A stretch of 64,000 bases of DNA from Auanema rhodensis (lineage: Eukaryota > Animalia > Nematoda): assembly GCA_964057225.1 (NCBI GenBank), contig OZ059898.1:9858001-9922000 (forward strand), written 5' to 3'. How positions within the stretch are numbered: the first letter of the stretch is position 1; each line of letters starts with the position of its first letter. Below the pieces are notes generated by a model. It saw nothing but the letters and a program-made list of their open reading frames with translations. It made no database searches and was not told the origin of the DNA. Of the stretch, positions 3,001 to 64,000 are shown one piece after another. A program made the position numbers and the translations under genes.

Positions 3001-6000
3001 GACTGGTAGTGGCATTGCTTTGAAAAAGTAAAATTTTCCGGCAAAGATGGTAATTATGATTGCTGCAATGATTAGAACAGTAGATCCTATTAATATTAAG
3101 GTTCTTTCAATTGTCCCCATTAAGAATTGTTTTATGCTATTCCAGGCTGTAGTTGTGAACTCAGTTGCTTTCGAAATATAATCGCTGCCCTTTTTCAAAA
3201 GAATAAAGGCTGACGTTATCTTTGGGTCGTTGTGAATCGTATTTAGTACGTGATTTTGTCGTATTGAAGCTAAACTAGCTCCATACGCTATTGCGGTAGT
3301 CATTGAATAGACTCTTGATGAAAGATTAGTATAAAGATGAGCACCTGTAAATTTTAAAGGCGTAACTTTATGTTGGTGAGCTCCATCAAAAAGTGTGATG
3401 GGATTGACTTCCGCAGACCCATTAATGTTCATCCATTCCCCGTTTTTCTCATAAATATCAGTTGGTACGTGTTCGCAGTCGATTTCTTTCCCGTACGAGA
3501 GTAAATCTCTTGATCCCGGTGCTGCGAAATATAATTTGTTGTCTTCGGTTGTTACTGGTGTCTCTAAGTAACATGTTTCATTGATTTTATGAGAGTGGTG
3601 AACGGTTTTAGGCTCTATTGGTAGGCATATATGAACATGAACTATTTCGCTGCCCACGAAACGCGCTGCTATGTCTTCTCTGCCAAGGATTGTTCTCATT
3701 GCTATGGTTGGCTCTATTTGGAGAATTGAACGCCACAATTCGAGATATCTATTTTGTATCTCGCATATGGATTCGTAAGATTCCATAAAATGCTTTTGCA
3801 ATTCTTCCTGTATAAGAGTGGTTGCATATTGTAGATGATCTTGCGCTATTCTCTGAGATATATTCTCTTTATATTGTATCTCGTTGTTTACTTTGGAGCC
3901 TATATAATGTGCTTGCGCTTGTACTGCTTTCGTTTCAATCTCCAAAGGTGGTGATGACGTTCTCTGCTTTCTTTGCGATCTTAAAGACATATCTGTGACC
4001 GTTGCAAACGTAGTAATAGGCTGTTCTTTGTGAACACCATATATTAATGTAACCGTTGTTGGCGCGCGCGTGGATGTTATGGTTTGAGTTGTATCGATTT
4101 CTGGCGTTGTTTGAGGGTCCTGGATTAGCTTTGTTACTTCCGTTGTTGTCGTTATATATTCCGTTTTGTCTGTCAGGCGTCTGGTTGAGTAGGGAGGTGT
4201 TCTTTTATCCTCTAGTAGCGGTAGAAAGGTTTGAATGAGAAGATTTCGTGTATATTTGTTAGGACTTTTTGTTTGTTGATGGGGCCCAACAGGTATACCA
4301 AAATTATTCTCCATATCTCGATATAATTTCTCTATATCTGGCAGGATAATAGTTGGTACAGGCAGATGTCGAAATCTTTCATCGTCTGCTCTGGCCGCTG
4401 TTTGATTGGGTTTTATCGTACGTAGTTTGAGGACTTGGTGATATAGGTCAATTGTTTCTTTAATAATCAGTTGTTCCTCTTCGTTATTAGTTGATAATAC
4501 GGGCCTGATTGGCGGCATGTTTACAAATGCTTTCAAAACTTCTTGTTTTGATGGCACCGACATGTTATTTTGAGCGAAAATGGTCGGTGTAAATGCCAAC
4601 TCGAGCGCTATACTTTCGGTTCGCTCTCGATAACTTCCTTCTTTTGTGAGTATTTTTTCGTCAAATTCTTCTGCTGTTAATCTGTCGCCTATCTGCTCTA
4701 AAAGTTGCAGGGAGGTGAGGTATTTAACGGCTCCTCTTGTGGTAGCTGCCAGTTCTTTTTGGGCGAAGAATTGAAGCATTGCTTCTTCCGGGTCGTAGAA
4801 TTCATATATTTTTAAGAATCTTTCTATTGATCTATCCGAAGTAGTGCTTCGTAGGAAGAATTTGAACTGCTCGGGATGTGCTGAGATCCACTTAACGATA
4901 GAATATGTTGGATCTATTGTCCGTCTGGCTCGAATTATAGGAATTATTTGTGATATCCCAGGGTTACTCATTACTGGACGTAAAAATGGGTATGGGCATA
5001 TGTTCAATGTTAAAGTTTCGTAGTCTTCTTGTTCTTTTATCCAGCTTTCGTCCAATTGCAGTGCGCATTGCGCTATAGCCCTTTTTTGACGCTTAGCTGG
5101 CAACTTTTTATATTCTCTTTCAATTAAGTTGTGTATATTACTGTCATTTGGATATTTGGGAAAGAGTATATAATTGCCCGTGGTTGATTGAAATATAGGT
5201 TGCGAAAAACATGATGTAATCTGTTTTGGAATTTGTTTATTGTCGATAACAAGGGCTGACTGCGTATTGGGAATTAGTATTATGCTGTCTCCAATGATGG
5301 CATCGTATTCACTCATGTCTATGTAGTTGCATCTCTGTTCGTATGATTGGATTTCCCAGATGATCATTGAAGTATTGGATGCGCATTGGCCATGATGTGC
5401 AAGACAGCCTTCCGTATTGAGTAATAGATTTGTCAATATGGTGTCGTCTGGCATCCTGGTCATAACGCCTCTTTCCAAAACCAGTCGTTCTTTTTCTTCG
5501 CATTGTTCGTAATTGAATGAGCGCGCTGGAGAGAATGTAGGTTCGGTTGTCGCGTATGTCAAGCTATCCAATTTAATCAGGTCTTCTGATTTCCATTTAC
5601 GGTCGCGGACAGCCAGTCTACATTCGTTTTCTGTTGTTGGCTCAATTCGAACAATGGAGGAGTTATGATCTCTTAAAAATAGCAAATCCCTGATGCATAT
5701 TTTATGTATTTCTTTTGAACATCTCCATGAATCCCATTCGTGAGCCGTCTGGTTTCTTGTATACAGATGTATGTTTGTGCGGAGGACATGTTTGGTAGGT
5801 GGTATTGTGCATTTCCTCAGGGGTGGGGGTATAAGGAGGGCTCCACCTGTAGCTTTAGTGCACATCTGATAAGCATCAGTTATAGTGATTAGTGATAAGA
5901 TCACTGATAAAGCTACTGCTAGTGTTAAGGGGGATATCAAGGTCAAATTATTGACTCTTGAGCCTCTTCCTCTACCTCTATTATTGTTGTTTCCCCTGAA

Positions 6001-7920
6001 GGGATTATTACCGCGTTGACGGTTATCACTCTCCTGATTACGTGATAAGTTGTTATTTCTTTGATACCAATTTGGATTTGAGAAATTTCTACCGCGATTA
6101 CCAAGATTGCGGTTTCTTGCGAAAGAATTTTGCAGATTTTGTGGTTTCTGATTATTTGATGAATTTTGATAACTTTGATAATTTTGATAATTTTGGTAGT
6201 TTCTATTGTTAAATGATTGATAGCCTCTGCCGATTCCTCGCCTTCCGGTGTCGCGCCTGGGAGGGAATGTTCTATCGATTGCGTTAACCAGTAGCGCCTG
6301 AGGGTCGGCTACTTGGTTAGCAATTGATTCCTCCCATCTGGCATTATCAATTGCCTCGGCAAACGTTTTTGGTTTAGCTCTGATTACCCCCGGGCGTATT
6401 GTGTTTTTGAGACCGCGTAGAAAGGTGGATCTAAGGATATGGTCTTTGTGTGGGTCTGTATGTGAGAAAGCGTTTAAGCTTAGGCTTCGTAAAGTTTGTG
6501 CAAATCCATCTACTGATAGCTCGCCTTGGGTGGAATTCTGTAGCGTTATCAGCGCCGGATCTTGATTATACTCTGGGCATAGCCTAGAGGTAAGTTCTTC
6601 GATGAGAGTATTCCACGAGCCAGATGTCTTGATAGTATCGCTAAGCTGTGTATAAGCTTCTTCAGCTCGTTCGTTTTTGAGAAGTAATGGTAAGATTGTT
6701 AATCTTTCGGGCATAACTAAGCCTAAGGCGTTTGCAAAGGTGTTAAACTTGGCCACGAAGTCTCTAAAGTTGCGACTTCCGTCGTATATAGGGCAATATG
6801 GGGAGCTTAATGCCTGAGCAATGGTAGATTTACCCGCTCCTGGAAGCCGTGATGTTTCAGTCATTTCGGATGAGATGCCCTCAGGGTATGTGATAGGTGA
6901 TATTATCACTTCGCTCCCTGTTGGATCTTGATGAGTGTTTTCTATTGCCTTAGGGTTTCTGCTAGAGGAGCCTATTATAGGTGTAGTTGTTGCGAAACGG
7001 GCTCTTGGAACCTGGATGACTTTACCAGATGCCTGAGGCGATGTTCTATCAGTTGATCGTGAGCTAGGGATCGCACTATCTGATCTGTTAAGATTAGGAT
7101 TATGTGAAGAAAACCGGGGTTTTGCTGTTCCGCCGGGTGTTGTTTTATCGCCTGGGGATAAGTTTAAAATCTTTATCAGTCGATTTGTTAAAGATCTTTT
7201 GTTTTTAAACTTATCAGTTGTTAATGATAAGGGTGAAGCTTCTTGTATGCCTTCGAGGCTGGCTTCTGCTGACGAAGTTTCTGTTGCGCGCTTACTGGGT
7301 GTTTTTGTCTTCCGCTTATTAGGGATATTCTTTTTGATCTTATCAGTGATTTTTGATAAGGTTGAAGGGTTGTCACTAAGTTGGGTGGGTTCTAAAGTTA
7401 GCGAATGTGGTTGATTAATAGGCGTGGAAGGCGCTTGCGGGCTTTGTGTTAACCCGAGGGATGGGGAAGGTGCGTTATCAGTGATAACTGATAAGTTCGA
7501 CGCGTTTGGGCCTGGGGTTACCGGTGAGGCAGATGCGGTTGTCGGCTTTTTCTTTTGAATTTTTCGCAAATTTTTATTAGTATCAACTGAGCGTACCTTG
7601 GGATTTGTAGTTGGAGTTTGAGTGCTGTCGTCGGCTATGATGAAGTCCGGGTCTTCGTCGGTGTCGTCAGAAGGTGAATATGTACCTTCTCGGGGAGTAT
7701 AGAACTTGTCGACTTGCGGCTTCGGCTTCTCGTCTGGTTGGTGCGGTTCTTCTATTTGAACACTGAGAAGTCGGGTGCGGCTTCGGGTACGACTTGCGAC
7801 AGTAGCGTCACTGTTGATATCGGACGGGTAAAGGGCTGGGAAAGCCGATGAGAATCTTTTGGCCACCTTTGTAGGACTTTTGGTTTGGAAAAACCGAGAA
7901 TGGTGAGCTACGTGTGGGAT
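1..7920 (-). CDS. Gag-Env-Pol polyprotein of element A (partial, runs off the window in integrase; protease catalytic DSG deleted)
   Basis: Manual translation; all segments checked share one frame: IPHVAHHSRFFQTKS (7920), METSRLPGAGKST region (ATG 6864), signal peptide ...ITDA|YQMC (5871), RQKR (5080-5091), CEIQNRYLELW, TM ~3031-3105, RT YLDD (~1540-1551), RNase H, IN HHCC and ITDRGSNF at the edge. Its absence from the ORF track is consistent with there being no stop before the window edge. Confidence 0.9.
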   Translation of the reverse strand, partial: MPHVAHHSRFFQTKSPTKVAKRFSSAFPALYPSDINSDATVASRTRSRTRLLSVQIEEPHQPDEKPKPQVDKFYTPREGTYSPSDDTDEDPDFIIADDSTQTPTTNPKVRSVDTNKNLRKIQKKKPTTASASPVTPGPNASNLSVITDNAPSPSLGLTQSPQAPSTPINQPHSLTLEPTQLSDNPSTLSKITDKIKKNIPNKRKTKTPSKRATETSSAEASLEGIQEASPLSLTTDKFKNKRSLTNRLIKILNLSPGDKTTPGGTAKPRFSSHNPNLNRSDSAIPSSRSTDRTSPQASGKVIQVPRARFATTTPIIGSSSRNPKAIENTHQDPTGSEVIISPITYPEGISSEMTETSRLPGAGKSTIAQALSSPYCPIYDGSRNFRDFVAKFNTFANALGLVMPERLTILPLLLKNERAEEAYTQLSDTIKTSGSWNTLIEELTSRLCPEYNQDPALITLQNSTQGELSVDGFAQTLRSLSLNAFSHTDPHKDHILRSTFLRGLKNTIRPGVIRAKPKTFAEAIDNARWEESIANQVADPQALLVNAIDRTFPPRRDTGRRGIGRGYQSFNNRNYQNYQNYQSYQNSSNNQKPQNLQNSFARNRNLGNRGRNFSNPNWYQRNNNLSRNQESDNRQRGNNPFRGNNNNRGRGRGSRVNNLTLISPLTLAVALSVILSLITITDAYQMCTKATGGALLIPPPLRKCTIPPTKHVLRTNIHLYTRNQTAHEWDSWRCSKEIHKICIRDLLFLRDHNSSIVRIEPTTENECRLAVRDRKWKSEDLIKLDSLTYATTEPTFSPARSFNYEQCEEKERLVLERGVMTRMPDDTILTNLLLNTEGCLAHHGQCASNTSMIIWEIQSYEQRCNYIDMSEYDAIIGDSIILIPNTQSALVIDNKQIPKQITSCFSQPIFQSTTGNYILFPKYPNDSNIHNLIEREYKKLPAKRQKRAIAQCALQLDESWIKEQEDYETLTLNICPYPFLRPVMSNPGISQIIPIIRARRTIDPTYSIVKWISAHPEQFKFFLRSTTSDRSIERFLKIYEFYDPEEAMLQFFAQKELAATTRGAVKYLTSLQLLEQIGDRLTAEEFDEKILTKEGSYRERTESIALELAFTPTIFAQNNMSVPSKQEVLKAFVNMPPIRPVLSTNNEEEQLIIKETIDLYHQVLKLRTIKPNQTAARADDERFRHLPVPTIILPDIEKLYRDMENNFGIPVGPHQQTKSPNKYTRNLLIQTFLPLLEDKRTPPYSTRRLTDKTEYITTTTEVTKLIQDPQTTPEIDTTQTITSTRAPTTVTLIYGVHKEQPITTFATVTDMSLRSQRKQRTSSPPLEIETKAVQAQAHYIGSKVNNEIQYKENISQRIAQDHLQYATTLIQEELQKHFMESYESICEIQNRYLELWRSILQIEPTIAMRTILGREDIAARFVGSEIVHVHICLPIEPKTVHHSHKINETCYLETPVTTEDNKLYFAAPGSRDLLSYGKEIDCEHVPTDIYEKNGEWMNINGSAEVNPITLFDGAHQHKVTPLKFTGAHLYTNLSSRVYSMTTAIAYGASLASIRQNHVLNTIHNDPKITSAFILLKKGSDYISKATEFTTTAWNSIKQFLMGTIERTLILIGSTVLIIAAIIITIFAGKFYFFKAMPLPVMHIQRADNEPPGYEETLELVSRPDQPMPENIMKQYYPALVTFIPPGSSVSYVRLSTLKYLNMAQHVKKRRLVAMAANKTTFTLYGKINLNIEIAGYEIEHTFLVSNDCDCPAPALIGMDFMSTLDSENIDVSLKPSKKMLEIGNYALPLIEQDAIKQTAITVNIINLKKRIIQPDEESTIPIKADRPLKSNEVVILGDNGNALASSYPTAFRETSGVYVVFRNNTDKTLAMEANSVIGQATIGEVPSWQTIQEDPMQPYIPPEADWENKLPHFPRNFMNDLNLDKADLNNEDKHELTNIVKNHREAFLNEDRKIGLFKGPIEHTIPLRSDMDMPRSRITRIPLGKQEEVEKQVKEMLEQGIIEPSTSLFNSPAVLVKKKDETYRFVTDFRALNSVTRKQTYVIPSISDIVDMAAGAQFFSNFDLVSGFFQISLRKSDRHLTAFTTTSGTYQYKKMPMGLCGAPHTFQTAVRYLQSKCSCKLFVYLDDLLIISDTRKQHLEDIDELLHAVESLGMKIKLKKCAFAQPEVKFLGLIIGREGIKPDPQKVAAIQEYPAPKNATGVRAFLGMVGFFRKFIKDFASIASPLYDLTKTDTEFAWEKQHQEAVDRLKRSLTQAPVLSPPKSDRLFIIESDGSNIAVGAVLLQPEDPTQPLKHLHPIAFASRKLVKAERNYAPIEIEALGLVYALNQFRTYILGTHTICITDHRPLTSLLTRRDLFGRLAKFQLVIQEYDIEIRYREGQLNKVCDALSRYIGDEANDAKPEKKKKKNAESIRINTIDTPAIKEIQQNTLWIKKTIADIEYRTQKKMVSNDRYCVINGLLYTKPTDKKPHPAIVVPQDHPIKDEIIELFHEDPTIAAHQGINKTKEAILRRFYWTNMQNDIMIYIKNCIKCAQRKKDPHSMTVQPIGQFEIPTKPFERVHMDVMGPFPPSKRNCTYVITIQDAFTKWSTTIAVPQITTEITIDRFLRNFVYIYGPPHRLITDRGSNFVSQKFEEMCTKL

Positions 7921-8261
7921 GTTGATGTAAGGTGCGTAAGATTCTTTTAGATGTGTGTTGGGAGAGAGAGATTCGGGAGCAATAGGATAGTCGTGCTTCG
8001 CTGGGCGATGCGGAGGGTAAATGAGAGGGAGTTTTCCAAATCGTGGCCACCAATCTGACTCCGCCTATCTACCGTAAGCTTATTATAGTTAATGATGTTT
8101 ATCTCTTCTCAAAAACTATTTTTATCCGCTCTTGCACTTTCCGCTTGTACTTGCTTTAATCTCTCTCTTTACGAGTAGCTTTCAATCATGTTTTTATCCC
8201 TCTTTTCTCTCTTGTTTACCAAGCTATATTTTATTATTTTGAGAGCTAAGAATTTTTGAAA

Positions 8262-8797
8262 ATGAGCGTCCAGCCTACTGGAATGACCTTCGTCATGCAA
8301 AAGCTGTATGACGTTATTGTCTTTTATGATGCTGAAGAGAGATTGGCTTATAGGCCCCATCCTGATATAGTATTAATGGTTGGTGCATTAGTCAATTTCA
8401 GTATTTTCTTTTGCTATTTTAGTTTATTGAGGATCTGCAAATGTTCTATTTGGGCAGGGGCCTCGTTAATTTTTCCGCTATGGCGGAAATTGCGCCCGAG
8501 ATTGAGCTCGTAGGGCGTCTCTGCCTCCGTGACCTCTGCGCGCATTCTTATGCCGCTCTCCCGTGTGGACTTGTAGGAAGTCCCTGGAGATGGTATACCG
8601 AGAGGCAGCCTTTATTCTATGAATTATTATGTAAAATTTTGTTTAAAATTTATGTATGTTATGATAGCTCTTCGCTTGGATTGCAGCTGAGGGCCTCACT
8701 GGGGAGAGAGTATCCCGAATACCTCACCCCCAGTTACGAGCCTATCTCTCCTGTTGCAGAGTTTGAGAGACAGCTAGCTTTCAAGTGGGGATTTTGA
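8262..8797 (+). CDS. Putative spliced antisense gene in the leader of element A (exons 8262-8378 and 8423-8797, 163 aa, unknown function)
   Basis: AAAATG start; a 44-nt GT..TTTTAG intron joins two ORF-track ORFs in frame; AATAAA at 8801-8806, 3 nt after the stop. Confidence 0.45.
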
Positions 8798-9109
8798 CTG
8801 AATAAAGCTTGTACTCTGTGTTTTTATTTTTATGCGCTTTGCTCTGTTTTCGTCAAGAAAATGGACTTATGTTTTCAATCTTTTCCTCATTCTTTTTCCC
8901 TTAAATAGCATGTTTTGCTCAAAATGTTTTCGACATTGTGCATGCTAATGAGGTTTGAGGAGAGTTATTGAAAAGGCTGTCCTTTTTCTTGATCAAAATA
9001 AGCAAAAGTGCGTTTTCCTAAGCGAATTTCTTTTTGAAACTGAGAAAAATACGTCTATTTTTAAACATTTCCCATTTACTTAGGATTACTGTAGGAGATA
9101 AGGGGTATC

Positions 9110-9390
9110 TTATGAGTTGAAACAACGAAATGATTTGAGGAAGGTGACATAATCTACGGGGATAAAATCCGTAGCAGTTATGCTTCCGCCAACTTGACCT
9201 GACTGTCAAATAAGAGCTGAGAAGTCTTATTGCAGATTTACCAGGCTTTTTCGGACTAGTGTGGTCTGTTTTTATATTCAATTTATGTAACCGTTTTTGG
9301 TTTCCCGCAAAATAATATGTAAGATGATCTTTTACGTCTGAATATAATAATTTTTCAAAATTCTAGTCCTGACCACAAATATACAAACTA
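9110..9390 (-). promoter_or_regulatory. Conserved structured RNA element in the 5' leader of element A
   Basis: Blocks of identity with 43381-43690 of element B, a 1-nt indel between blocks (non-coding) and compensatory base-pair changes. Confidence 0.65.
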
Positions 9391-9768
9391 TAAACAATTG
9401 CGCGCGTCTTATAAAATTTTTTTGTTCCAATTATCAAACTTCTCTATGCCCAAAAAAAAATGTGAACAATTATAATTTCTCGTTTGGCGAAATTGTCCTC
9501 TATTTCAATCCAAACGTCCTCAAAATGGCATGAGAAGCGGTACAAGATACGATAAAGAAAAGGGTGGACATTCAGACGGTTTTTAAATTGAGGACGGCGG
9601 GCAAAAATTTTATTGGTCCTATCTCGCATTTAAGCGAGATCCCTTGTATCTGTACCTTAAAACAAATTGGCGCCTTCATTTTGTTGTTTCAAGTGGAGGA
9701 ATTTATAATTTAGAATGCAAAAATTGACTTTTACAATAAAAAAAATTTTTTTTTTTTTTTCAAAAGAT

Positions 9769-9789
9769 GAGTTCGAGGTGGAACCTCCA
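9769..9789 (-). promoter_or_regulatory. Primer-binding site (tRNA-Gln), element A
   Basis: TGGAGGTTCCACC-TCGAACTC directly after the LTR; complementary to the metazoan tRNA-Gln 3' end GGTGGAACCT-CCA. Confidence 0.85.
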
Positions 9790-10134
9790 CGTTCCGTTAC
9801 GCTCCTGCGTCGATAATATAAACCATTGTAGTTTATACTATGACGCGCATAGTATTCCTTGGTGTAGCGGTAAGGAATAAAGAGCATAAGGTCAACCATA
9901 AGATAAAAGAGAGAAAGATTTATTGGCATGAAACTACAACAATAATATACAAAGATAAAGATACAATACAATAAGATAAATATAAGTATAAAGACTAAAC
10001 TACAAGCCGTCCATGAGCTTGCTAAGAGGCGAACTCCCGACCAAGGGAACGAGGGAAGGCGGAGCCATTCCTCGGTCCTCTGGTCGTCTGGCTCTAACCC
10101 TTCAGCTACATATATGGGGAGTCCGAATGGAACG
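9790..10134 (-). repeat. 5' LTR of element A (345 bp, CGTTCC...GGAACG)
   Basis: Starts CGTTCCATTCGG and ends TAACGGAACG, as in the element B LTR; U5 is homologous to B. Confidence 0.9.
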
Positions 10135-42333: not shown

Positions 42334-42566
42334 TTCGAAAATGTTAGATTGTTTCCGAAAAATTATGAAAAGTCAAGTTCTACTGATTTGAAGAGAATTG
42401 TTAGTTTTAGAAAATAATTAAAAATAAGTTCTCTCTACTATTAACTGATTGTCGGCTAAAATATGGTAACAGTTTTTATAAAAAGTTTCCATGATTAGGA
42501 TTAAACAAAAAAAAGAATTAAAAAGAAACACTTCTTGTTTACTTACTTGATTATACTACTTGAAAT

Positions 42567-42924
42567 CGTTCCATTCGGATGATCAATGCATTACATTCAT
42601 ATGACGAAGCTGTAGCAGGCGGGTTAGAGTCAGAGAATGCGAGACTGAGAGAAGACGACCCGCCCTTTTCCATATTACAACACTTCAGCTTTGCCTCAGG
42701 GACGATCATGGATGGTTGGTCGTTCTCTCTCTGTTCTCTATTAGTTTAACCTTTACTTAGTTATATGTATCTTATTGTAATCACGTAGATATAATAAACC
42801 AATCTTTCTCGAGTCTTATGTTTATCCTTATGCTCCATGTTTAACCGCTACATCTGGAATACTACCACGCTCATCTTGTAGACTCCATTGGTCTGTAAGA
42901 TCGACGCGGGAGCATAACGGAACG
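42567..42924 (+). repeat. 5' LTR of element B
   Basis: Direct repeat of 53871-54228; termini CGTTCC...GGAACG; AATAAA near 42793. Confidence 0.97.
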
Positions 42925-42944
42925 TGGAGGTTCCACCTCGAACT
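42925..42944 (+). promoter_or_regulatory. Primer-binding site (tRNA-Gln), element B
   Basis: TGGAGGTTCCACC-TCGAACT abutting the LTR. Confidence 0.87.
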
Positions 42945-43380: not shown

Positions 43381-43690
43381 AGTTTGTTTTGCGATCAGGA
43401 CTATTTTATTTTGCGTTACGATTTCGTTCAGACAAATTTTGCTTCTAACATCCTAAATTTATAATCAGTACGCATGAAAAAAAATTACACGGGAAACCTC
43501 ACCAAAAAGGGAGGATTGTTAATTTATAGATCGCTATAGTCCGAAAAATCCTGTTGAAAAATGTTATCTCGAATTTGAATCATGATTAACACAGGTCGTG
43601 TTGGCTAAAGCATATCGGTTTGGATTTTCTCCCCTTACTGAATGTCACCTTCCTCATACCGTTATTGTTGTTCAGAAGCATAAGACTCAC
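43381..43690 (+). promoter_or_regulatory. Conserved structured RNA element in the 5' leader of element B
   Basis: Homologous to 9110-9390 (minus) with covarying stems. Confidence 0.65.
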
Positions 43691-44378
43691 GCATTGAACC
43701 TTATTCCAACTTTAATACTAGTTCTTGTAATATTTAGCCATTTAACTCTGCTTTTATTTCAAAATTCGATTTCTGATCACGAAATACCTACATTCATCAT
43801 TGCGAAACGCTCTTTTGTAAAACTAATATTACGAATCCCATGACTTTTGTTACAACGAAACATGCGAGCTACACCAAATGTATTTGAAAACCAGATTGTA
43901 AAGAAACAAAAATTATTTTTGGTGACAAAAGAGAAATTGGTGCACATTTATTGTTAAACTGCTCTTTTATCAAAAGCATGTTACGAATTACACCATAAGT
44001 TTTGTTGCAAGATGACACACCACATGGCCGAGAAACTAGTGTAACAAAACATAAGTTTAGTCAGCATGAGGAAAATGGTTGCATACAAATCAGTAAAATG
44101 TGCTGTAATTGAACGAATATTACGAATTACACTAAACGTTTTGTAAAATAACAGCTTGGTCACCCCAGATGTTTTGTGAATCAGATTTTCAACTACAGAG
44201 AAAATACGGAGAGCACCAGAGTCCCGATATCACACAGTAGAAGGCGGATCCATCGCCATTGGCCAAGGCATCGACCTCATTCTCACAAGTTGTCGATACG
44301 ACACCGGTCGCTCTCCAAAGCCTTTCTCATTTTGCCTACATCCTCATCCTTATTCACCGCATTCTTTAACGTCTCAAC

Positions 44379-47300
44379 ATCCCACACGTTACCAAGCACT
44401 CAAGGTTTTTTCAAACCAAGAGTTCTAGCAAGGTGGCTAAGAGATTCCATTCAGCCGTACCTATAAGTACGCATTTCGATTCCCAAGACTCAGCTCCCTT
44501 TACCAGAAGTCGAGCTCGAGCTCAAGACGTCGCTATATTAGAAGAGGAGCAGAAAGTCGACAAGAAGCCGGATAATTTCCTTATTCCTACTACTGATTCT
44601 GTCTCACCTACTGAACAACTAGGCGACCCGGACTACGTACCTACTATAGAAGAAGAACTATCAATCATTGTGGAGGAACAAACACCGATCACTCCTAAAA
44701 AGGTACGCTCCTCTAATTCTAATAAAAATAAGAAAAATCAAAACATCAGCGACGCTTCTCTCTCTCTCTCACTAACCGAACCAACCGATTCCCCTTTACT
44801 TTCAAAAACTTCTAGCGCGGGTGGGCTTAGTTCTCTTAGAAACATTGTTACTGATCTTTTTAACCTTTCGCCTAAAGATAAAACTTTCAACACCAAGCGC
44901 AAAAGCAGATATTCATCAGTCCCTAACATTAATATCTCACCAATTCAACCACCTGCACCAAATACCAGTATTCATCAAACTTCTACTCCCATCTTAACAA
45001 CAACAGACTCACTTCCTAAGGCACCCAATAGACCTATTCCATCCACGCAAACAACCCCTATTTTGGAGACCCCACCAATAACAGGTAGAACGATCAAAAT
45101 ACCATCTACCCGTACGAATAACATCATGACGGAAGCTGTTTCCTCACTACCTGGGGCAGGGAAAACAACAATCGCGCAAGCCTTACTTTCGCCTTACTGT
45201 CCAACTTACGACGGCAGTCGTAACTTCCGTGATTTTACGGGTAAATTCAACTTGTTTGCTAATGCCATTGGCCTTGTTATCCCTGAAAGGTTAGCACTTC
45301 TTCCTTTGCTTCTCAAAAATGAAGCAGCAGAAGAAGCTTACAGACAAGTTCCTGAACAACTTAAAACAACTGGTTCGTGGAATGATCTGATTAGAGCACT
45401 AACATCGAAGCTCTGCCCTGAATATAACCAAGACCCTGCACTTATTAACCTTCAAAACACCACGCAAGGGGAATTGACAATTGATGCATACGCCCAAGCA
45501 TTAAGAACAATGGCATTGAGTGCATTTGCATCTGATGACCCACATAAAGATCAAATACTGAGATCAACATTCCTCAGAGGACTTAAAAATTCTCTAAAAC
45601 CAGCTGTGATCCGAGCAAAGCCAAAATCCTTCACAGAAGCGATTGAAGCAGCTCGCTGGGAGGAATCGATAGTGAACCAAACAACAGACACGCAATCGAT
45701 GTTGGTCAACGCTGTGAACAAAGCACTAGCACCCTTTGCGCGTAATGATGAGAGACGAGATAGCCAAACATTTAATCGCAATTATCAACGCGATAACCAA
45801 ATGATAAGAAATAATCAAAATTATCAAAATAATCAAAATTATCAAAATTATCAAAAAAATAAAAACTTTTCTAATTTCAATAATAATCGAAACCGTTACG
45901 GTTCTTTCGCTAATAATAATCGCCGTACAAATTATAACGAACAAGATAATAGGCAATCGAGTTCTGATTGGCATCAAAGAAATTATAATTTTCGTCATAA
46001 CAACCAACGAGGTAGATTCAATAACAACAACGGACAAAGAAGAGTTCAATTCAAAAATCCAAGAGACAACTCAAGAGGAAGAGATAGAAGCTCAACAAGA
46101 ATAAACTCTGTCACCCTTTCGCCTTTGACGCTCACAGTTATCATGGCAATAACAACAGCAATATTCTTGCCCTGTGCATCTACATATCAAATCTGTACAA
46201 GAGCAACAGGAGGCGCATTACTTATGCCACCAACAATCAGAAAATGCAGATTAACAGAGAAAAACCATGTGCTACGTACAGAAGTTCATCTGTACACAAG
46301 AAATCACACAGCACACGAATGGGATGCGTGGCGTTGTTCAGAGGAAGTACACAAGTTATGCGTACGAGACCTGCTATTCCTCCGCGATACGAACAGAACA
46401 ATAAATAGAATACAGCCTATAGGAGAGCGCGAATGCAGACAGGCGATCCGCGATCGCAAGTGGAATAACATAGAACTGCAACGCATTGATAGTATCACCC
46501 AAGCAACTCCGGAGCCCTCCTATGACCCAGCGCGCGCGTTCAACCGCGACGCGTGCGAGGAGCGGTCACGTCTAATATTAGAGCGCGGAGTCATGACCCG
46601 TATGCCTGACGATACAATATTGTCAAACTTAATATTAAACACGGAAGGATGCAATGCACATCATGGTAATTGTGAATCAAGTACATCAATAATAATATGG
46701 GACCCACAAACCACTGCTTCACGTTGTAATTACATCGATATGCATACATATGACGCTATCATTAGTCAAGATACTATTTTAATCCCTAGTACACAATCGG
46801 CACTTATTCTTTCAAGCAAACCAACTCCGAAACCTATTTCTTCTTGCTTCAGGCAGCCAGCGTTCCATACGACATCAGGAAATTATATCATTCTTCCTAA
46901 ATTTCCAAACGACAACAATATAACCACCCTTATTGAAAGAGAGTTCAAAAAGCTGCCGTTTAAAAGACCAAAACGTGCAGTCACCGAAGGATGTTCTTTC
47001 CCACTGGATCAAGATCGGATCAACGAAGTTGAAGATTATGAAACAGTATTGCTTCACGTCTGTCCATATACTTTCCTAAGACCATTAATGAGTAATCCCG
47101 GTATTACTTCAATTATTCCTATAATCAAAGGAAGACGTTTAGTAGATCCAACATACTCTCTAAAGGCATGGATAACATCACATAAAAAAAAATTCGAATT
47201 TTTCTTCAGAATTCAAATAAATGAACATTCTGTTCGACATTTTCTCAAGCAATACGATTTCAGTGATAAAAAAGAAGCTCTGCTATATTATATAGCACAA

Positions 47301-50300
47301 AGAGAATTAGCCATTACTACAAAGGCAGCAATATCATACTTAACATCTGAACAGCTTCTCGAACAAATATCAGATCGTTTGACAGTAATCGAATTCGATG
47401 AAATCATAAGGAAGAAAGAAGGTTCATATCGCGAACGAATTGAAAGCATAGCTCTCAATTTAACCAATACACCAGTTATAATTGAAGAAGGACTGACAGT
47501 TCCATCACGACAAGAAGTCCTACAAACGTTCATACAAATGCCACCAATAAGGAAACGTATACTAACTGACGAGGAAGAGAAGAAAAGCGAATTCATTAAG
47601 GCAACGATCAATTTACTAAGAGAACTAAAAACCCTCACAACAGTACGATGGAATAAAACTGCAGCATTTATTGATGACAGAAAATTTATAAAATTGCCAG
47701 CATCACGACAATTCATGCCAAATACAGATAAACTATTTTATGACAGGAAGAATAATTATGGAATACCGATCGGTCCACACCCTAAGCTGATCAAGCCCAG
47801 CAATCTTTCAAAGAAATTATTATTGGAAATATTTTTACCCCTGCTCAATAATGTAAAAACACCTTATACATCGAGTAGGATAACACAAGAACAACTTCAA
47901 ATCTTAATGGCAGAGAAAAATGAAACAAATTTTCGGCAAATCGCAACGCGGACATCCAGCGTCGCGGCAGGCGGCGCGGCTAGCGGCGCGGTTGTGACAC
48001 CAGTCCAACCTTTGATCGAACAGAAGGGAACAATCCAATCAGTTACCACAATACAGCCGCATATAACGAACAATCCTCACACAAATGCAACAACCACCAC
48101 AAGAGCACCATCATGGAGGCAACAGCCATCAACAACGGCGCCTCACACGACCGCTGCGACAACAGCACGCACAACAACATCAACCGCTCGTTCGCCAACA
48201 ACAACAAGAAGCTATGCCATATACAAAGACGCACAGATTCCAAAAATACAAGAGACAACCGAAGCCTCTCCAACATTGATTCGAAAAAACCGAGCTTCCT
48301 CAACACCATCAGTAGAAACCTCAAATTTAGTGGAAGCAAATGCGAGATACATAGCAACGAAAATTGACTCGGTACAAGAGTTTCGTCAAAATATATCGAA
48401 CAAAATAGCCCAAGATCATTTACAGTATGCTACTACAATGATCCAAGAGGAATTGCAGAAACATTTTGAAGAATCATACGAATCGATTTGCGAGATACAA
48501 AATCGGTATCTGGAATTATGGAAATCAATTCTACAAATTGAACCAACAATCGCAATGCGAACAATACTGGGAAGAGAAGATATAGCCGCACGGTTTGTAG
48601 GCAATGAAATTTTGCATATACATGTATGCCCTACAGTGCTAGAGAAAACCATTTATCACAATCACACCGTAAATGGCACATGCTATCTCGAAACCCCAGT
48701 CTGGACACAAGACGGACAGTTACTGTTTGCAGCACCCGGATCCAAGGATCTTTTACCTCATGGTAAAGAAATAAGCTGTGATCACGTACCAAGAGATATC
48801 TGGTCTAGCGAAGGTGAATGGAAAGGAATTAATGGGACTGCAGACGTCAATCTTGTATCAATGTGGGACGGACTTCATCACGAAAAAATAACACCATTAA
48901 AATTCACCGGAGCTCACTTATACACTAATTTATCGTCTCGTGTATACTCAATGACCACAGCCATAGCTTACGGTGCGAGTTTAGCATCGATTCGTCAGAA
49001 TCACGTTCTTCACACAATTCACAATGATCCAAAGATATCAGCTACATTCAGTGTACTAAAGAAAAGTAGCGACTACATATCGAAAGCTCAAGAATTCACC
49101 AAGAGCACATGGAAGTCATTCATCGATACAATTGCAGGAACGATTGAGCGAACACTAATAACGATCGGTGCAATTACATTATTTACCATCATACTCTTTG
49201 TGATAGGTTTCATTGTAAAGATCTATTTCTTCAAACCAGTAGGCATACCAGTTATGCATATTGCACTCAAAGATCACGACAGTGATCTACCAACATACGA
49301 AGAAACTTTGGAATTAGTTAGTCATCCGGATCAACCGATTCCAAGACACATAATGAAACAATACTATCCATCAATGCTCACATTCATACCAATCGCACTA
49401 CCATTAGTTTGCACGATTTCCAAAAAGAAAGATCAAGCACTACCACTTCTATGGATGACTGTTAATGATAGACTGATCCTAACTTTATGGGACTCAGGTT
49501 CGTCCGTCAGTTACATAAGAATATCGACACTACACTACTTAGCTTTGAATGACTTTGTTAAGAAGAATACATTAAGAGCAACAACAGCGAACGGATCAGA
49601 ATTTGTATTCATTGGTACTATCGACTTAACCGTCGAAATAGCCGGTTACGAAATCGACCATACATTCTTCATATCAGACGACAAAGACTGTCCATCGCCA
49701 GCGTTGATTGGATTAGATTTCATGAAAACACTTGACTGTCAAAACATTGGCATGAAACTAAGACCATACAAAAGAACACTGGAAATTGGAAATCATGTAG
49801 TACCTTTGGCTAGCGGAATTAACGGGGATATTAACAGGATATCAAAAACTGTTAATTTGATAACCTTGGAGCCGCGGAGTCTACTTCCTCGACAAGTTTT
49901 TAATTTCCAAGTCCAATTAGAGAACCCAATCGGAGAAGACTTAATCGCTATGATTAAACCAAACGACAGTACTCCTCTCTCACCTCGATACGACACAGCA
50001 TTTCGCGATGTTAACTCCATCAATATCCAATTCCGGAACAATTCTAAAGAATTCATAGAAATACCGGCCGGCACTGTGATTGCAGAAGCCGAAATAGGAT
50101 CTATACCGGACTATGAAATCTTCTCAACAGAACAACAGTACGACTATATTCCACCAGAAGCAGACTGGGAAGGCAAATTACCTCACTTCCCTGGTGATTT
50201 CATGAAAGAACTTGACCTAAAAGAGGCTGATCTTACGCAACGACAAAAAGACGAACTACGAAACATCATTCGTCAACGTAAGAAGGCATTCCTCAATGAA

Positions 50301-53138
50301 GATAAAAAGATAGGATTGTTCAAAGGACCAGTAGAACACAAGATACCACTACGAACGGATATGGATATGCCAAAGCCACGAATTTCACGTATACCTCTCG
50401 GGAGACAAGAAGAGGTAGAAAGACAAGTCCAAGAAATGCTCGAGCAAGGGATAATAGAACGATCGACATCTTTGTTCAACAGCCCTGTCGTTCTCGTTAA
50501 GAAAAAAGACGAAACATTCCGTTTCGTTACGGATTTCCGAGCCTTAAATAACGTTACAAGAAAACAAACATATGTGATTCCTAACATCTCTGATATCATT
50601 GACTTAGCGGCTGGATCACAATACTTTTCTAATTTTGATCTTGTTTCTGGCTTTTTCCAAATACCATTATTGAAGAAGGATAGACCACTCACATCCTTTA
50701 CCACCAATAGTGGGACTTATCAATACAGGAGAATGCCTATGGGATTATGTGGTGCGCCACATACCTTTCAAACAGCCGTGAGATATCTCCAAAGTAAATG
50801 TAAATGCCGACTATTTGTCTATTTGGACGATTTACTAGTCATATCAGACAGCGCAGAACAACACCTCGAAGACATCAAAGAAGTATTACTCGCTGTAGAA
50901 AGACTAGGATTTAAGATTAAACTCAAGAAATGTTCATTTGCAAGACCAGAAGTGAAATTTCTCGGACTCATTGTCGGAAGAGACGGAGTTAAGCCCGATC
51001 AACAGAAAGTTTCCGCCATCCGCGATTACCCTGCTCCTCAAACACCCACAGGAGTAAGAGCATTCTTAGGAATGGTCGGATTCTTTAGAAAATTTATTAA
51101 AGATTTTGCACATATAGCAAGTCCGCTGTATGACCTTACTAAGCTAGACGCAGACTTCAATTGGACTAGCGAATGTCAACGTTCACTAGATAAGCTAAAG
51201 GAACGACTAATCGAAGCACCGGTACTGAAACCACCACGATCAGACCGAACTTTCATCATTGAAAGTGATGGCAGCAACATCGCCATAGGCGCAGTATTAC
51301 TGCAGCCCGAAGATCCAAACGAACCATTCAAGAACTTACATCCAATTGCTTTCGCAAGTAGGAAATTAGTAAAAGCAGAACGTAACTATGCTCCCATAGA
51401 GATAGAAGCCTTAGGCTTAGTTTACGCTCTAGCACAGTTTCGAACATACATACTTGGATCACATTCAATTTGCATCACCGATCATCGCCCATTGACAAGC
51501 TTACTAACTAGAAGAGACCTATTTGGAAGACTAGCAAAGTTCCAATTGGTCATACAGGAATACGATATTGAGATCAAATATCGAGAAGGCAGATTAAACA
51601 AAGTCTGTGACGCACTCTCTAGATACATTGGAGATAAAGCTAACGATCCAAAGACGTCGAACAAGAAACAAAAGACGAATTCGAAAGAGAAAATTGAGAC
51701 ACAACAAGTAAATGTTGTGAAGTTACCAGAATTCAGCTCAATCCAACAAAATACTCCTTGGATCAAGAGAACAATAGCTGAGATTGAATACAGAACGAAG
51801 AAAAATATGATTCAAAATGATCGTTATTGTGTTATAAACAACTTACTCTACACAAAACCAAGCGTCAAAAGACCTCATCCAGCGTTAATATTGCCATCGG
51901 ATAGTGATATAATTAACAAAATCATTGAAGAATTTCATGAAGACCCAACAATCGGGGCGCATCAAGGAATCAACAAAACAAAAGAAGCCATAGTACGAAG
52001 ATTTTCCTGGACTAACATGCAGAACGACATAGCAAAATACGTAAAACAGTGCATCAAATGTGCACAACGAAAGAAAGATCCTCATGCTATGACCGTACAA
52101 CCGATGGGTCAATTTAACATACCATCAAAACCATTTGAGAGAATACATATGGATATCATGGGACCATTCCCAACATCAAAAAGGAACAACAGCTATGTCC
52201 TCACAATACAAGACTCTTTCTCCAAATGGGCTACAACTATCGCCATACCAACAATTGTTAGTGAAGTTGTCATTGATAGATTCCTCAGAAACTTTGTATA
52301 TGTCTATGGACCACCGAATCGCTTAATAACAGACCGCGGTTCCAACTTCCTATCAAGGAAATTTGAAGACATGTGCGAAAAACTCGGTATCAAACATGAA
52401 TCAACACTCCCACATCAGAAGAATTCCAATGGACAAGTAGAAAGACTTCATAGAACGTTAGAAGAAGGACTCACACATTATCTCAACGAAGATGTCACTG
52501 ATTGGGACATGTTTTTGCCAAAAATTACCTTTGCATTGAACACCACAACGCATGCAACCACAGGAATATCACCATACGTTGTACTATTCGGGAAAGAAAG
52601 CCGTTTGAGATTGGATAAAGATTTATACCCCGAAACAACTGAACCAAAGGAAATTTCAAAGGAGATTGAAAATATTGAGAAAATCCGAAGCAAACAGAAA
52701 ACAATCATTCAAGAAAATTTGGAAAAGCATCAAGAATTAGCAAAAAAGAAACATGATGCTCGATTACGCACTCACGAAAGAGATATACAAGAAGGAGACT
52801 GCGTTATGTTAGCTGTGAAAATGCACAAGCCAGGACAAAAGCTTCGGAAAGCTTATGATGGACCATTTGAAGTTATAAATGTGAAGGGAAACATGGTTCA
52901 AATCAAAAACCTTTTCGGAAAGATTCAAGACGTTCACAAGGACAATCTCAAATTATTTAATCGAGAAACAGATGACGGAATCGCACATAAGCCCAGTACA
53001 CGTACAGACAGCTCAGACGATGACAGCGATATCGAAATCATAGAGGTTATCAACGGAAACAACAACGAGGAAGACTCTTATGACGAACCAGAAGACCTTT
53101 CGGATACAAATTGGCTACCATCAAGAAAAAACCATTAA
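44379..53138 (+). CDS. Gag-Env-Pol polyprotein of element B (~2900 aa): Gag, gB-like fusion glycoprotein, aspartic protease, RT, RNase H, integrase
   Basis: ORF-track ORF 44433-53138; the frame is open from 44370 and conserved with A from 44376; first ATG at 45126. Motifs: LWDSGS (49491), YLDD (50820), RNase H ESDGS/TDH/DALSR, IN H-H-C-C (~51936), HMD/TDRG/ER, GPF. Confidence 0.95.
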   Translation: MPHVTKHSRFFQTKSSSKVAKRFHSAVPISTHFDSQDSAPFTRSRARAQDVAILEEEQKVDKKPDNFLIPTTDSVSPTEQLGDPDYVPTIEEELSIIVEEQTPITPKKVRSSNSNKNKKNQNISDASLSLSLTEPTDSPLLSKTSSAGGLSSLRNIVTDLFNLSPKDKTFNTKRKSRYSSVPNINISPIQPPAPNTSIHQTSTPILTTTDSLPKAPNRPIPSTQTTPILETPPITGRTIKIPSTRTNNIMTEAVSSLPGAGKTTIAQALLSPYCPTYDGSRNFRDFTGKFNLFANAIGLVIPERLALLPLLLKNEAAEEAYRQVPEQLKTTGSWNDLIRALTSKLCPEYNQDPALINLQNTTQGELTIDAYAQALRTMALSAFASDDPHKDQILRSTFLRGLKNSLKPAVIRAKPKSFTEAIEAARWEESIVNQTTDTQSMLVNAVNKALAPFARNDERRDSQTFNRNYQRDNQMIRNNQNYQNNQNYQNYQKNKNFSNFNNNRNRYGSFANNNRRTNYNEQDNRQSSSDWHQRNYNFRHNNQRGRFNNNNGQRRVQFKNPRDNSRGRDRSSTRINSVTLSPLTLTVIMAITTAIFLPCASTYQICTRATGGALLMPPTIRKCRLTEKNHVLRTEVHLYTRNHTAHEWDAWRCSEEVHKLCVRDLLFLRDTNRTINRIQPIGERECRQAIRDRKWNNIELQRIDSITQATPEPSYDPARAFNRDACEERSRLILERGVMTRMPDDTILSNLILNTEGCNAHHGNCESSTSIIIWDPQTTASRCNYIDMHTYDAIISQDTILIPSTQSALILSSKPTPKPISSCFRQPAFHTTSGNYIILPKFPNDNNITTLIEREFKKLPFKRPKRAVTEGCSFPLDQDRINEVEDYETVLLHVCPYTFLRPLMSNPGITSIIPIIKGRRLVDPTYSLKAWITSHKKKFEFFFRIQINEHSVRHFLKQYDFSDKKEALLYYIAQRELAITTKAAISYLTSEQLLEQISDRLTVIEFDEIIRKKEGSYRERIESIALNLTNTPVIIEEGLTVPSRQEVLQTFIQMPPIRKRILTDEEEKKSEFIKATINLLRELKTLTTVRWNKTAAFIDDRKFIKLPASRQFMPNTDKLFYDRKNNYGIPIGPHPKLIKPSNLSKKLLLEIFLPLLNNVKTPYTSSRITQEQLQILMAEKNETNFRQIATRTSSVAAGGAASGAVVTPVQPLIEQKGTIQSVTTIQPHITNNPHTNATTTTRAPSWRQQPSTTAPHTTAATTARTTTSTARSPTTTRSYAIYKDAQIPKIQETTEASPTLIRKNRASSTPSVETSNLVEANARYIATKIDSVQEFRQNISNKIAQDHLQYATTMIQEELQKHFEESYESICEIQNRYLELWKSILQIEPTIAMRTILGREDIAARFVGNEILHIHVCPTVLEKTIYHNHTVNGTCYLETPVWTQDGQLLFAAPGSKDLLPHGKEISCDHVPRDIWSSEGEWKGINGTADVNLVSMWDGLHHEKITPLKFTGAHLYTNLSSRVYSMTTAIAYGASLASIRQNHVLHTIHNDPKISATFSVLKKSSDYISKAQEFTKSTWKSFIDTIAGTIERTLITIGAITLFTIILFVIGFIVKIYFFKPVGIPVMHIALKDHDSDLPTYEETLELVSHPDQPIPRHIMKQYYPSMLTFIPIALPLVCTISKKKDQALPLLWMTVNDRLILTLWDSGSSVSYIRISTLHYLALNDFVKKNTLRATTANGSEFVFIGTIDLTVEIAGYEIDHTFFISDDKDCPSPALIGLDFMKTLDCQNIGMKLRPYKRTLEIGNHVVPLASGINGDINRISKTVNLITLEPRSLLPRQVFNFQVQLENPIGEDLIAMIKPNDSTPLSPRYDTAFRDVNSINIQFRNNSKEFIEIPAGTVIAEAEIGSIPDYEIFSTEQQYDYIPPEADWEGKLPHFPGDFMKELDLKEADLTQRQKDELRNIIRQRKKAFLNEDKKIGLFKGPVEHKIPLRTDMDMPKPRISRIPLGRQEEVERQVQEMLEQGIIERSTSLFNSPVVLVKKKDETFRFVTDFRALNNVTRKQTYVIPNISDIIDLAAGSQYFSNFDLVSGFFQIPLLKKDRPLTSFTTNSGTYQYRRMPMGLCGAPHTFQTAVRYLQSKCKCRLFVYLDDLLVISDSAEQHLEDIKEVLLAVERLGFKIKLKKCSFARPEVKFLGLIVGRDGVKPDQQKVSAIRDYPAPQTPTGVRAFLGMVGFFRKFIKDFAHIASPLYDLTKLDADFNWTSECQRSLDKLKERLIEAPVLKPPRSDRTFIIESDGSNIAIGAVLLQPEDPNEPFKNLHPIAFASRKLVKAERNYAPIEIEALGLVYALAQFRTYILGSHSICITDHRPLTSLLTRRDLFGRLAKFQLVIQEYDIEIKYREGRLNKVCDALSRYIGDKANDPKTSNKKQKTNSKEKIETQQVNVVKLPEFSSIQQNTPWIKRTIAEIEYRTKKNMIQNDRYCVINNLLYTKPSVKRPHPALILPSDSDIINKIIEEFHEDPTIGAHQGINKTKEAIVRRFSWTNMQNDIAKYVKQCIKCAQRKKDPHAMTVQPMGQFNIPSKPFERIHMDIMGPFPTSKRNNSYVLTIQDSFSKWATTIAIPTIVSEVVIDRFLRNFVYVYGPPNRLITDRGSNFLSRKFEDMCEKLGIKHESTLPHQKNSNGQVERLHRTLEEGLTHYLNEDVTDWDMFLPKITFALNTTTHATTGISPYVVLFGKESRLRLDKDLYPETTEPKEISKEIENIEKIRSKQKTIIQENLEKHQELAKKKHDARLRTHERDIQEGDCVMLAVKMHKPGQKLRKAYDGPFEVINVKGNMVQIKNLFGKIQDVHKDNLKLFNRETDDGIAHKPSTRTDSSDDDSDIEIIEVINGNNNEEDSYDEPEDLSDTNWLPSRKNH
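46110..49232 (+). other. env: Env region within the polyprotein: signal peptide, Cys-rich class III (herpes gB-like) ectodomain, TM anchor
   Basis: Hydrophobic LTLTVIMAITTAIFLPCAST|YQIC; RPKR at 46965; CEIQNRYLELWKSILQIEPTIAMRTILGREDIAARFVGNEILHIHVC at 48489; many N-x-S/T sequons; TM 49152-49232. Confidence 0.85.
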
Positions 53139-53513
53139 CTCATGAGATTTTATTGTAAATTGTTTTGTAATAACTTTCTTTAAAGTAATACTAGAACACA
53201 AATTTTGTAACGACTCCTCTAAAACAAGTCACTCTTAAGTCAAAAAGTAAACTAGAGCATAATGAACACGGGAAATGTGAGAAAATAATTCTTTTATCAT
53301 ATAGTTCGAACCTTCCTAATTTCAACTAACTTCCCCATACTAGATGAGATGAAAAATGAAAGACATAGTTTGCAACAATATCTGAGCAACAGTCTTCACT
53401 TGAGTAATCAATGACTCAATTTGGAAGTTATTTGGTATTACGCAAAACTTTTCTTTTTTTTCTAAACTCACACAAATTGAAACAAACAACCGAGCTCTAG
53501 CAAAAAAATAGTT

Positions 53514-53589
53514 AACTTTTTATCTACACTTGTTGGAGCGTTATGCTTAAAAACTTTTTATCTACACTTGTTGGAGCGTTATGCTTAAA
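53514..53589 (+). repeat. 38-bp tandem duplication in the 3' UTR of element B
   Basis: AACTTTTTATCTACACTTGTTGGAGCGTTATGCTTAAA occurs twice. Confidence 0.9.
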
Positions 53590-53859
53590 AACCTTTTTTT
53601 TTATTATTTTATAAGCACGTTCGCCAATAAAACATAGTCTAGTATTCGTTAAAGAGGGTTAAAACTTTCATAATTTGGTTAAAAAAATTTTTTTAAATTC
53701 TTTTCAGATACTGATGTTTTATATTGTATTATGTTCATATTATAAGAATTTTACGTAAAATATTGTATTGTAACATGTACTTTAATACACACATTAACCC
53801 TTCTGCTACAGTTAATCAAGTCAAAACTTTTGATTGTCGCGAGGCCGCGACATAAACTC

Positions 53860-53870
53860 GAAAAAGGGCA
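53860..53870 (+). promoter_or_regulatory. Polypurine tract of element B
   Basis: GAAAAAGGGCA immediately before the 3' LTR. Confidence 0.8.
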
Positions 53871-54228
53871 CGTTCCATTCGGATGATCAATGCATTACAT
53901 TCATATGACGAAGCTGTAGCAGGCGGGTTAGAGTCAGAGAATGCGAGACTGAGAGAAGACGACCCGCCCTTTTCCATATTACAACACTTCAGCTTTGCCT
54001 CAGGGACGATCATGGATGGTTGGTCGTTCTCTCTCTGTTCTCTATTAGTTTAACCTTTACTTAGTTATATGTATCTTATTGTAATCACGTAGATATAATA
54101 AACCAATCTTTCTCGAGTCTTATGTTTATCCTTATGCTCCATGTTTAACCGCTACATCTGGAATACTACCACGCTCATCTTGTAGACTCCATTGGTCTGT
54201 AAGATCGACGCGGGAGCATAACGGAACG
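53871..54228 (+). repeat. 3' LTR of element B
   Basis: Direct repeat of 42567-42924. Confidence 0.97.
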
Positions 54229-59227: not shown

Positions 59228-59456
59228 TGCCTTATATTGAAAAAGTAGCTGACCTCAGCTATAAGAAATTAGACCTTTTAAGGAAAAGAAACAAAAGAGA
59301 AAAATATATATATAAATGAATTAGAATTAGAATACTAGAATAGGAATAATAGTGTAATAGGAATAATATTAAAAAAAATGAAAACAATATAAAAAGAAAA
59401 AGAAAAGAAAAGAAAAGAAAAGAGAAGAAAAACTATGAATTCACCTCGTGCAGCTG

Positions 59457-63999: not shown

Positions 64000-64000
64000 G

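Follow-up and report, generated by a model that had tools for sequence, protein, structure and literature searches.

The locus described here raises the question of how a retroelement could make, sort and package its proteins when the envelope is encoded between Gag and the protease in one uninterrupted reading frame. The window, a 64,000-nucleotide stretch of Auanema rhodensis DNA, contains an intact Ty3/gypsy LTR retroelement of 11.7 kb at 42567-54228, hereafter element B, and two related elements, A and C, at its edges (Table 1). B is a young, recently inserted and complete element whose insertion splits a satellite unit at TTGAAATTCC. With identical LTRs, an intact frame and the diverged sister A in the same window, it is a clean specimen in which selection can be read along the polyprotein, and it yields checkable predictions of a start codon, a signal cut, protease sites and furin sites.

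An intact frame in Gag-Env-Pol order

In B the frame stays open between 44370 and the stop codon at 53136-53138, a length of 2922 codons from stop to stop, and the window has no N. Numbering residues from 44379, Pfam searches placed Retrotrans_gag at 312-403, Monjiviricetes_fusion at 1348-1619 (E 1.4e-12, above cut-off), an aspartyl protease at 1694-1783, reverse transcriptase (RT) at 2040-2198, RNase H at 2262-2395 and integrase at 2509-2678. The order within this one frame is Gag, a signal-like segment, a gB-type ectodomain, a transmembrane (TM) helix and PR-RT-RH-IN. A hydrophobicity scan of B returned only two segments over threshold, one on either side of the glycoprotein: the signal-like segment before CAST/YQIC and the TM helix at ~49152-49232. 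The capsid match to Retrotrans_gag (PF03732) scored 26.6 bits against a cut-off of 24.1, Ty3_capsid stayed under its cut-off, and no CCHC finger was found in B Gag. For the RT the best solved relative is Ty3 (E 3.4e-74, 254 bits; the next entries scored 158 and 123 bits).

Table 1. Coordinates of element B and of the neighbouring elements within the window
Feature	Position	Strand	Remark
Target-site duplication AAAT	42563..42566 and 54229-54232	+	flanks both LTRs
5' LTR	42567..42924	+	358 bp, ends CGTTCC...GGAACG
Primer-binding site TGGAGGTTCCAC	42925..42936	+	tRNA-Gln type, directly after 5' LTR
Non-coding leader block	43592..43685	+	74% over 95 nt vs element A
AUG-free stretch	44172..45125	+	954 nt, all three frames, up to first in-frame AUG
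N-terminal Gag extension	44376..45125	+	open, without Met
First AUG and Gag capsid domain	45126..45713	+	Pfam Retrotrans_gag
Nucleocapsid-like region	45714..46100	+	Asn/Gln/Arg-rich, 55%
IN/SV motif	46101..46112	+	putative site for the element's own protease
Internal signal-peptide-like segment	46107..46184	+	ends A-S-T ahead of YQIC
gB-type fusogen, N-terminal half	46185..46976	+	beta-rich, 10 Cys, ends in furin-like RPKR
Alpha-helical insert, ~320 aa	46977..47930	+	pLDDT 81, pTM 0.80 folded alone
Ser/Thr-rich (32%) stalk	47949..48293	+	low confidence, ends RKNR (minimal furin-like)
gB-type fusogen, C-terminal half	48294..49151	+	Pfam PF24664 and PF00606
TM helix, predicted stop-transfer	49152..49232	+	hydrophobicity peak 2.7
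Cytosolic tail/linker (predicted)	49233..49455	+	LPTY (PPGY in A, PPSY in P0002)
Aspartic protease	49458..49727	+	Pfam gag-asp_proteas; D-S-G at 49491
Reverse transcriptase and RNase H	50496..51563	+	YLDD 50820-50831
Integrase	51903..52892	+	HHCC finger, rve core, GPF motif at 52860
Polypurine tract GAAAAAGGGCA	53860..53870	+	precedes 3' LTR
3' LTR	53871..54228	+	358 bp, 100% identical to 5' LTR
Element A	1..10134	-	sister family; 5' LTR 9790-10134; 3' end beyond window
Element C	58889-64000	-	gag and any env beyond window

The layout is not a one-off, as the preliminary description had already argued from A, whose frame at 1-8064 on the minus strand has both hydrophobic segments and the same domain order. 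A itself is not intact: near 2870 it has lost 34 codons in frame, among them those of the catalytic motif of the protease, and the rest of its frame within the window stays open. Comparison of A with B reveals purifying selection in every domain, Env included (pN 0.23 and pS 0.77 in the N-terminal Env half; pN 0.21 and pS 0.79 in the C-terminal half). The Env halves are 66-69% identical between the two elements and the capsid 71%, with synonymous sites saturated.

The assembly was checked with contigs from three DNA runs belonging to three studies, one of which may be the window's source. The coding frame of B carries zero indels in the contigs of all three runs, and gap-free contigs (X1 record 4, covering 45456-49371, and X3 record 24, covering 47585-50142) bridge both junctions of Env with its neighbours. 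None of 18 substitutions in the frame, each judged singly across the three runs, creates a stop; a nineteenth, seen in a single contig at depth 2.4, was left out. The indel-free contigs from three DNA studies exclude an assembly artefact as the source of the frame. One further run, X13, guessed to be RNA, covered 3 of 30 bins. Separately, DNA-contig joints at 45481-52499 (in all three DNA runs) and 47499-53444, with sides of 20-26 bases, skip most of B and are a weak hint of internally deleted copies.

Given the open frame, the domain order, the two segments and the three DNA studies, the preliminary description was right in its account of a single Gag-Env-Pol frame without stop or frameshift and of a hydrophobic signal and a TM helix around Env, except for the length and the term 'sequon-rich'. 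The frame is indeed open over the 2901 residues it gave, but that figure was counted from a GTG at 44433, and the first AUG, at 45126, would give 2670 residues. Its anatomy stands; what it left out are the class III identity of the fusogen, the probable non-AUG start and the large insert in Env.

The envelope and its predicted membrane junctions

We modelled the ectodomain with AlphaFold2 from a 74-row alignment (mean pLDDT 74.8, pTM 0.52). Searched with Foldseek, the model matched herpesvirus gB in the PDB (best E 1.4e-10; all rows listed are gB) and nyami-, chu- and rhabdo-like glycoproteins in BFVD (nyamivirus/rhabdo-like G, E 1.5e-12). The TM-scores to gB are low (0.15-0.26), as expected from the large insert and the uncertain packing of domains. 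By its predicted fold, then, B Env is a class III (gB-type) fusogen. The N-terminal half is modelled mostly at pLDDT 83-98, has gB matches in Foldseek and keeps 10 of 10 Cys in A, and the C-terminal half has a long central helix (model residues 709-785), crown strands and membrane-proximal helices.

The ectodomain had been called Cys-rich and sequon-rich. All 16 of its Cys are kept in A, but 14 of them lie in the gB halves and the ~440-residue insert between these has only 2. As for sequons, there are 13 over the ~990 residues and 7 over the first 605, which makes 'rich' an overstatement; A retains 7 of the 8 in the gB halves, 4 of the 7 in Gag and 4 of the 8 in the tail and Pol.

The helical insert is 51% identical to its counterpart in A at saturated synonymous sites, and hence under constraint. 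It is present in 8 of 151 relatives. The gap between the gB halves measures 768 residues in B against a median of ~323 among 88 proteins with both halves; the range in these is ~280 to 780, and long spacers are common. For the insert we found no Pfam family above cut-off, no Atlas match and no Foldseek match at E<=0.001, an absence that does not make the fold new; the best VIA score was Z 3.7 over 65 residues (rmsd 4.3). The insert may illustrate a way for a single gB-like protein to acquire a targeting part in the absence of herpesvirus-style partners. The stalk's terminal RKNR corresponds to RKQR in A and RTLR in P0002, the nearest relative.

Several features mark the border between Gag and Env. 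The signal-like segment is moderately hydrophobic (peak 1.9) with a short core, carries a net charge of +3 on its Gag side versus +1 on the other, and in most relatives shown ends in small neutral residues at -1/-3 before an aromatic-x-x-Cys start. Among 52 usable relatives, taken from 102 with an N-terminal Env match, 44 have a hydrophobic segment just before Env and 8 fall under threshold, compared with 22 hits in 2600 control windows. These observations support the idea that the segment acts as an internal signal, a call that rests on hydrophobicity and conservation. An IN/SV-like motif was found in 13 of 26 Gag-bearing relatives versus 129 of 1300 control windows, the pattern having been picked after the alignment was seen. 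It repeats at other domain borders and resembles Ty3 protease sites.

On the far side of Env, the tail motif (LPTY, PPGY or PPSY) resembles a budding late domain. Between Env tail and protease, at 49362-49409, lies a second, weaker hydrophobic stretch, of which P0002, P0013 and P0024 have comparable versions; it is possibly membrane-associated or a protease site.

The start of translation

The AUG-free stretch that precedes the first in-frame AUG is 954 nt long in B and 1322 nt in A, while the longest ATG gaps downstream are 342 and 461 nt. On the opposite strand the same stretches contain 13 and 23 ATGs, respectively. None of 5000 base shuffles of either element was free of ATG, and codon shuffles lacked out-of-frame ATGs in 70 of 5000 cases for B and 2 of 5000 for A. 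Ahead of the first AUG the frame is open for 252 codons in B and 400 in A, and the extension is opened by a 16-base exact match between A and B around ATC 44379. Its first 30 codons specify 77% identical protein (pN 0.16, pS 0.73). Translation likely starts at a non-AUG codon near ATC 44379, and a non-AUG start combined with leaky scanning to AUG 45126 would be the simplest reading of these patterns, which come from two elements, A and B.

Other routes into the extension fare less well. The GTG at 44433 is unlikely to be the sole start, six synonymous changes with kept residues lying upstream of it. Entry by splicing is contradicted by the lack of any AG between the in-frame stop at 44367-44369 and the conserved start and by first AGs that are out of phase between A and B, and entry by frameshifting by overlapping frames that lack both an AUG and conservation. 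Because 30 AUGs precede the AUG-free stretch in the genomic leader, plain cap scanning cannot explain initiation unless splicing, shunting or internal entry intervenes.

Apart from A, the extension had zero matches among the best 150 of 269 relatives, and a literature search on gypsy elements returned, among the matches listed, none on non-AUG starts in these nematode elements. Within the extension, in a part that is otherwise poorly conserved, a donor-like AAG/GTACGC (AAG/GTACGCTC) matches base for base and in register between B 44701 (44698-44710) and A 7598 (7590-7600). The non-coding leader block shared with A is possibly a packaging or RNA signal.

Relatives, predicted topology and its alternatives

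A word-based search for homologs picked out 1 of 7985 candidate proteins, and scans with single proteins for relatives' DNA in metagenome and viral contigs gave none. The nearest protein, P0002, is named Auanema sp. and is 44% identical over Env. A HMMER search with Env gave 269 clusters; the best 150 of these, together with the Auanema protein (151 in all), were classed by B's domains. B aside, 16 of these 151 have Gag>Env>Pol in one chain. The other layouts are Env>Pol (17), Env>protease with or without Gag (14), Gag>Env (12) and Pol>Env (3); the remaining 89 show Env only, and include fragments as well as Bel/Pao-type proteins whose RT escaped the queries. Some relatives are gene models that could conceal introns; three of the Gag>Env>Pol proteins span 87-91% of contigs of ~8 kb, which fits unspliced frames. 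Named Gag>Env>Pol relatives come from Caenorhabditis and Acrobeloides.

In a 26-row RT-RNase H tree, from which the RTs of published GAG-ENV-POL elements were left out, A and B are sisters (100/99), joined next by C, and all three fall in a group (96/89) with proteins named C. brenneri, C. nigoni and A. nanus. Six relatives with a C-terminal env form a separate clade (100/100) far outside. B has the traits of Ty3/gypsy elements (Metaviridae), namely PR-RT-RH-IN, an RT nearer to Ty3 than to retroviruses, a capsid domain, and LTRs with primer site, purine tract and target duplication. It also has those of the nematode GAG-ENV-POL errantiviruses: env between gag and pol, a gB-type env between a signal-like segment and a TM helix, and a tRNA-Gln primer like that of the Caenorhabditis members. 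B probably belongs to this published nematode group, and the layout itself is not new. Membership of Bel/Pao (Belpaoviridae) was rejected, as env precedes pol, CCHC fingers are missing and the clade with C-terminal env is separate.

The preliminary description had assumed that an env between gag and pol is rare, a premise contradicted by a published rule (PMC13524379) and by the 2019 report of Burro (PMC6431247). In nematodes, bryozoans and flatworms, Ty3/gypsy elements that bear env have only the gB type, in GAG-ENV-POL order, and gB-type ectodomains have on their two sides either a signal peptide plus a TM or a pair of TMs (PMC13524379). Chary and Hayashi tabulate 36 nematode elements with gB-type env, all GAG-ENV-POL, citing Sacco et al. 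2022 for a flipped env-pol order and an RNA-virus glycoprotein in nematode metavirus-like elements (PMC13524379). B shares with their elements the order, a gB env with signal and TM, and a Ty3/gypsy pol; its N-terminal Env half has, judged by eye, the Cys spacing of Clat_errantivirus_4 (PMC13524379). A tRNA-Gln primer site occurs in 8 of the 36 nematode rows and the exact 12-mer of B in 2, Clat_errantivirus_4 and Ctro_errantivirus_1 (supplement 1, PMC13524379). Element A has the same 12-mer at 9789.

Sacco et al. 2022 (J Gen Virol 103:1739) reportedly describe a continuous gag-env-pro-pol ORF with a nyamivirus-like env, which agrees with the BFVD match of B Env to a nyamivirus G. Chary and Hayashi speak of three ORFs, and 'polyprotein' and 'frameshift' occur zero times in their main text, whereas B has one frame (PMC13524379). 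Neither a single polyprotein and its topology nor a non-AUG start nor an insert in Env is discussed in the available text of that paper, and its figures or bioRxiv supplements may note a single ORF or the insert; its master table holds no Auanema element. The AUG-free N-terminal coding extension and the helical insert with its Thr-rich stalk, set between furin-like sites, are extras beyond what the available text of PMC13524379 and PMC6431247 describes, and Sacco et al. 2022 may cover start codons and topology. With the layout already known, B leaves the classification unchanged.

Other systems resemble B in part. The planarian element Burro/GYPSM1 likewise encodes one giant polyprotein in which env lies in frame, with gag before it and pol after it, and its env matches mononegavirus fusion proteins; it differs in its 30 kb and its CCHC fingers and BIR, BCL2, ubiquitin-like, ankyrin and dUTPase modules (PMC6431247). 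Pfam found no Burro-type modules in the 11.7 kb of B. Atlas virus and the env-bearing Bel/Pao elements are, like B, nematode elements with a single polyprotein that includes the envelope and with identical LTRs, but they have Gag-Pol-Env order, a class II phlebovirus-like Env, CCHC fingers and another RT lineage (bioRxiv 10.64898/2026.03.22.711591). Yeast Ty3, a member of the Metaviridae, offers the nearest solved RT-RNase H and the same PR-RT-RH-IN order. It has no env and makes Gag-Pol by frameshifting.

How, then, might B deploy its proteins? We think it probable that this nematode GAG-ENV-POL element makes from its one frame one polyprotein, predicted to cross the ER membrane twice, first into the lumen and then back out. 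The flavivirus-like topology proposed in the preliminary description is supported at the sequence level by the conserved signal-like segment, the gB fold and the one TM before the protease; the single TM after Env would leave Gag and Pol cytosolic and Env luminal. Some ribosomes would begin at a non-AUG codon near 44379 and others, after leaky scanning past it, at AUG 45126. The internal signal would direct Env to the ER lumen, signal peptidase cutting at AST/YQ, and the cleaved Gag would stay on the cytosolic face through its signal segment, much as hepatitis C core is held by its own. The TM helix would bring the chain back to the cytosol, so that PR-RT-RH-IN would hang on the Env tail and no Gag-Pol fusion would survive. 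Capsids would assemble on that membrane and bud with Env outside, whereupon the element's protease would release Gag (at IN/SV) and the enzymes. Furin-like cuts on either side of the insert would release or loosen it.

As for the proposed 1:1:1 stoichiometry, it would apply just to synthesis, and then on condition that no splicing occurs; because Gag and Env-Pol would separate during synthesis, particle ratios need not be 1:1:1. We infer that Pol may be packaged through the Env tail. More tentatively, and with the balance of our judgement against the full combination, B may follow a complete flavivirus-style strategy in which a non-AUG start gives two Gag forms, Gag is signal-anchored, Pol is borne on the tail, and the insert, either displayed or shed, serves as a subunit that binds a receptor or modulates the host. 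How the Gag:Pol ratio is set and how Pol is packaged without a Gag-Pol fusion are matters not addressed in the available text of PMC13524379 and PMC6431247.

The strongest competitor to a single two-crossing polyprotein, itself unlikely, accepts the frame as real and has splicing set the ratios through subgenomic Gag, leader-Env or Env-less Gag-Pol messages, the full polyprotein being minor. Ty3-like capsids probably carry less than equimolar Pol, which counts for this alternative, as does the donor-like site that occurs in register at 7598 in A and 44701 in B amid poorly conserved sequence. Cer1, a nematode Ty3/gypsy element without a gag-pol stop, does use splicing (PMC10309623). However, a consensus scan found no acceptor-like site in register common to A and B, and both junctions are open in many divergent relatives, which splicing alone would not need. 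A signal after Gag, with a protease-like site before that signal, would moreover make sense only with co-translation of Gag and Env.

We regard it as far less probable that the internal hydrophobic segment remains uncleaved as a permanent anchor, giving a two-pass Gag-Env-Pol protein with Gag and Pol joined until the element's protease acts. Internal signals can be slow to cleave, and some gB-type ectodomains are flanked by two TMs (as cited above), but the small neutral -1/-3 residues before aromatic-x-x-Cys in most relatives shown and the short hydrophobic core argue for cleavage. That Env is a mere passenger, with no enveloped particles now and a frame kept open just for ribosomes to reach pol, we find scarcely credible, since for all the variation in spacing between the gB halves (~280-780 residues in 88 relatives) the Env halves are constrained like the capsid (66-69% vs 71% between A and B), 16 of 16 Cys are kept and the fold is predicted with high confidence.

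The surroundings of B are themselves repetitive. Between 10135 and 58783 the window holds a 230-bp satellite array with 36 tRNA-Gly(GCC) genes, all on the minus strand and mostly spaced one per 3-4 satellite units. Ty3-like targeting at tRNA starts was rejected, given that the insertions lie ~105, 233 and >1600 bp from the nearest tRNA gene and at differing satellite positions. All three related LTR elements lie in or at the edges of the array, a placement suggestive of a zone where insertion is preferred or tolerated. Their LTRs depart from the usual TG...CA: those of A and B have the ends CGTTCC...GGAACG (in B at 42567-42572 and 54223-54228), and those of C have TGTTCC...GGAACG.
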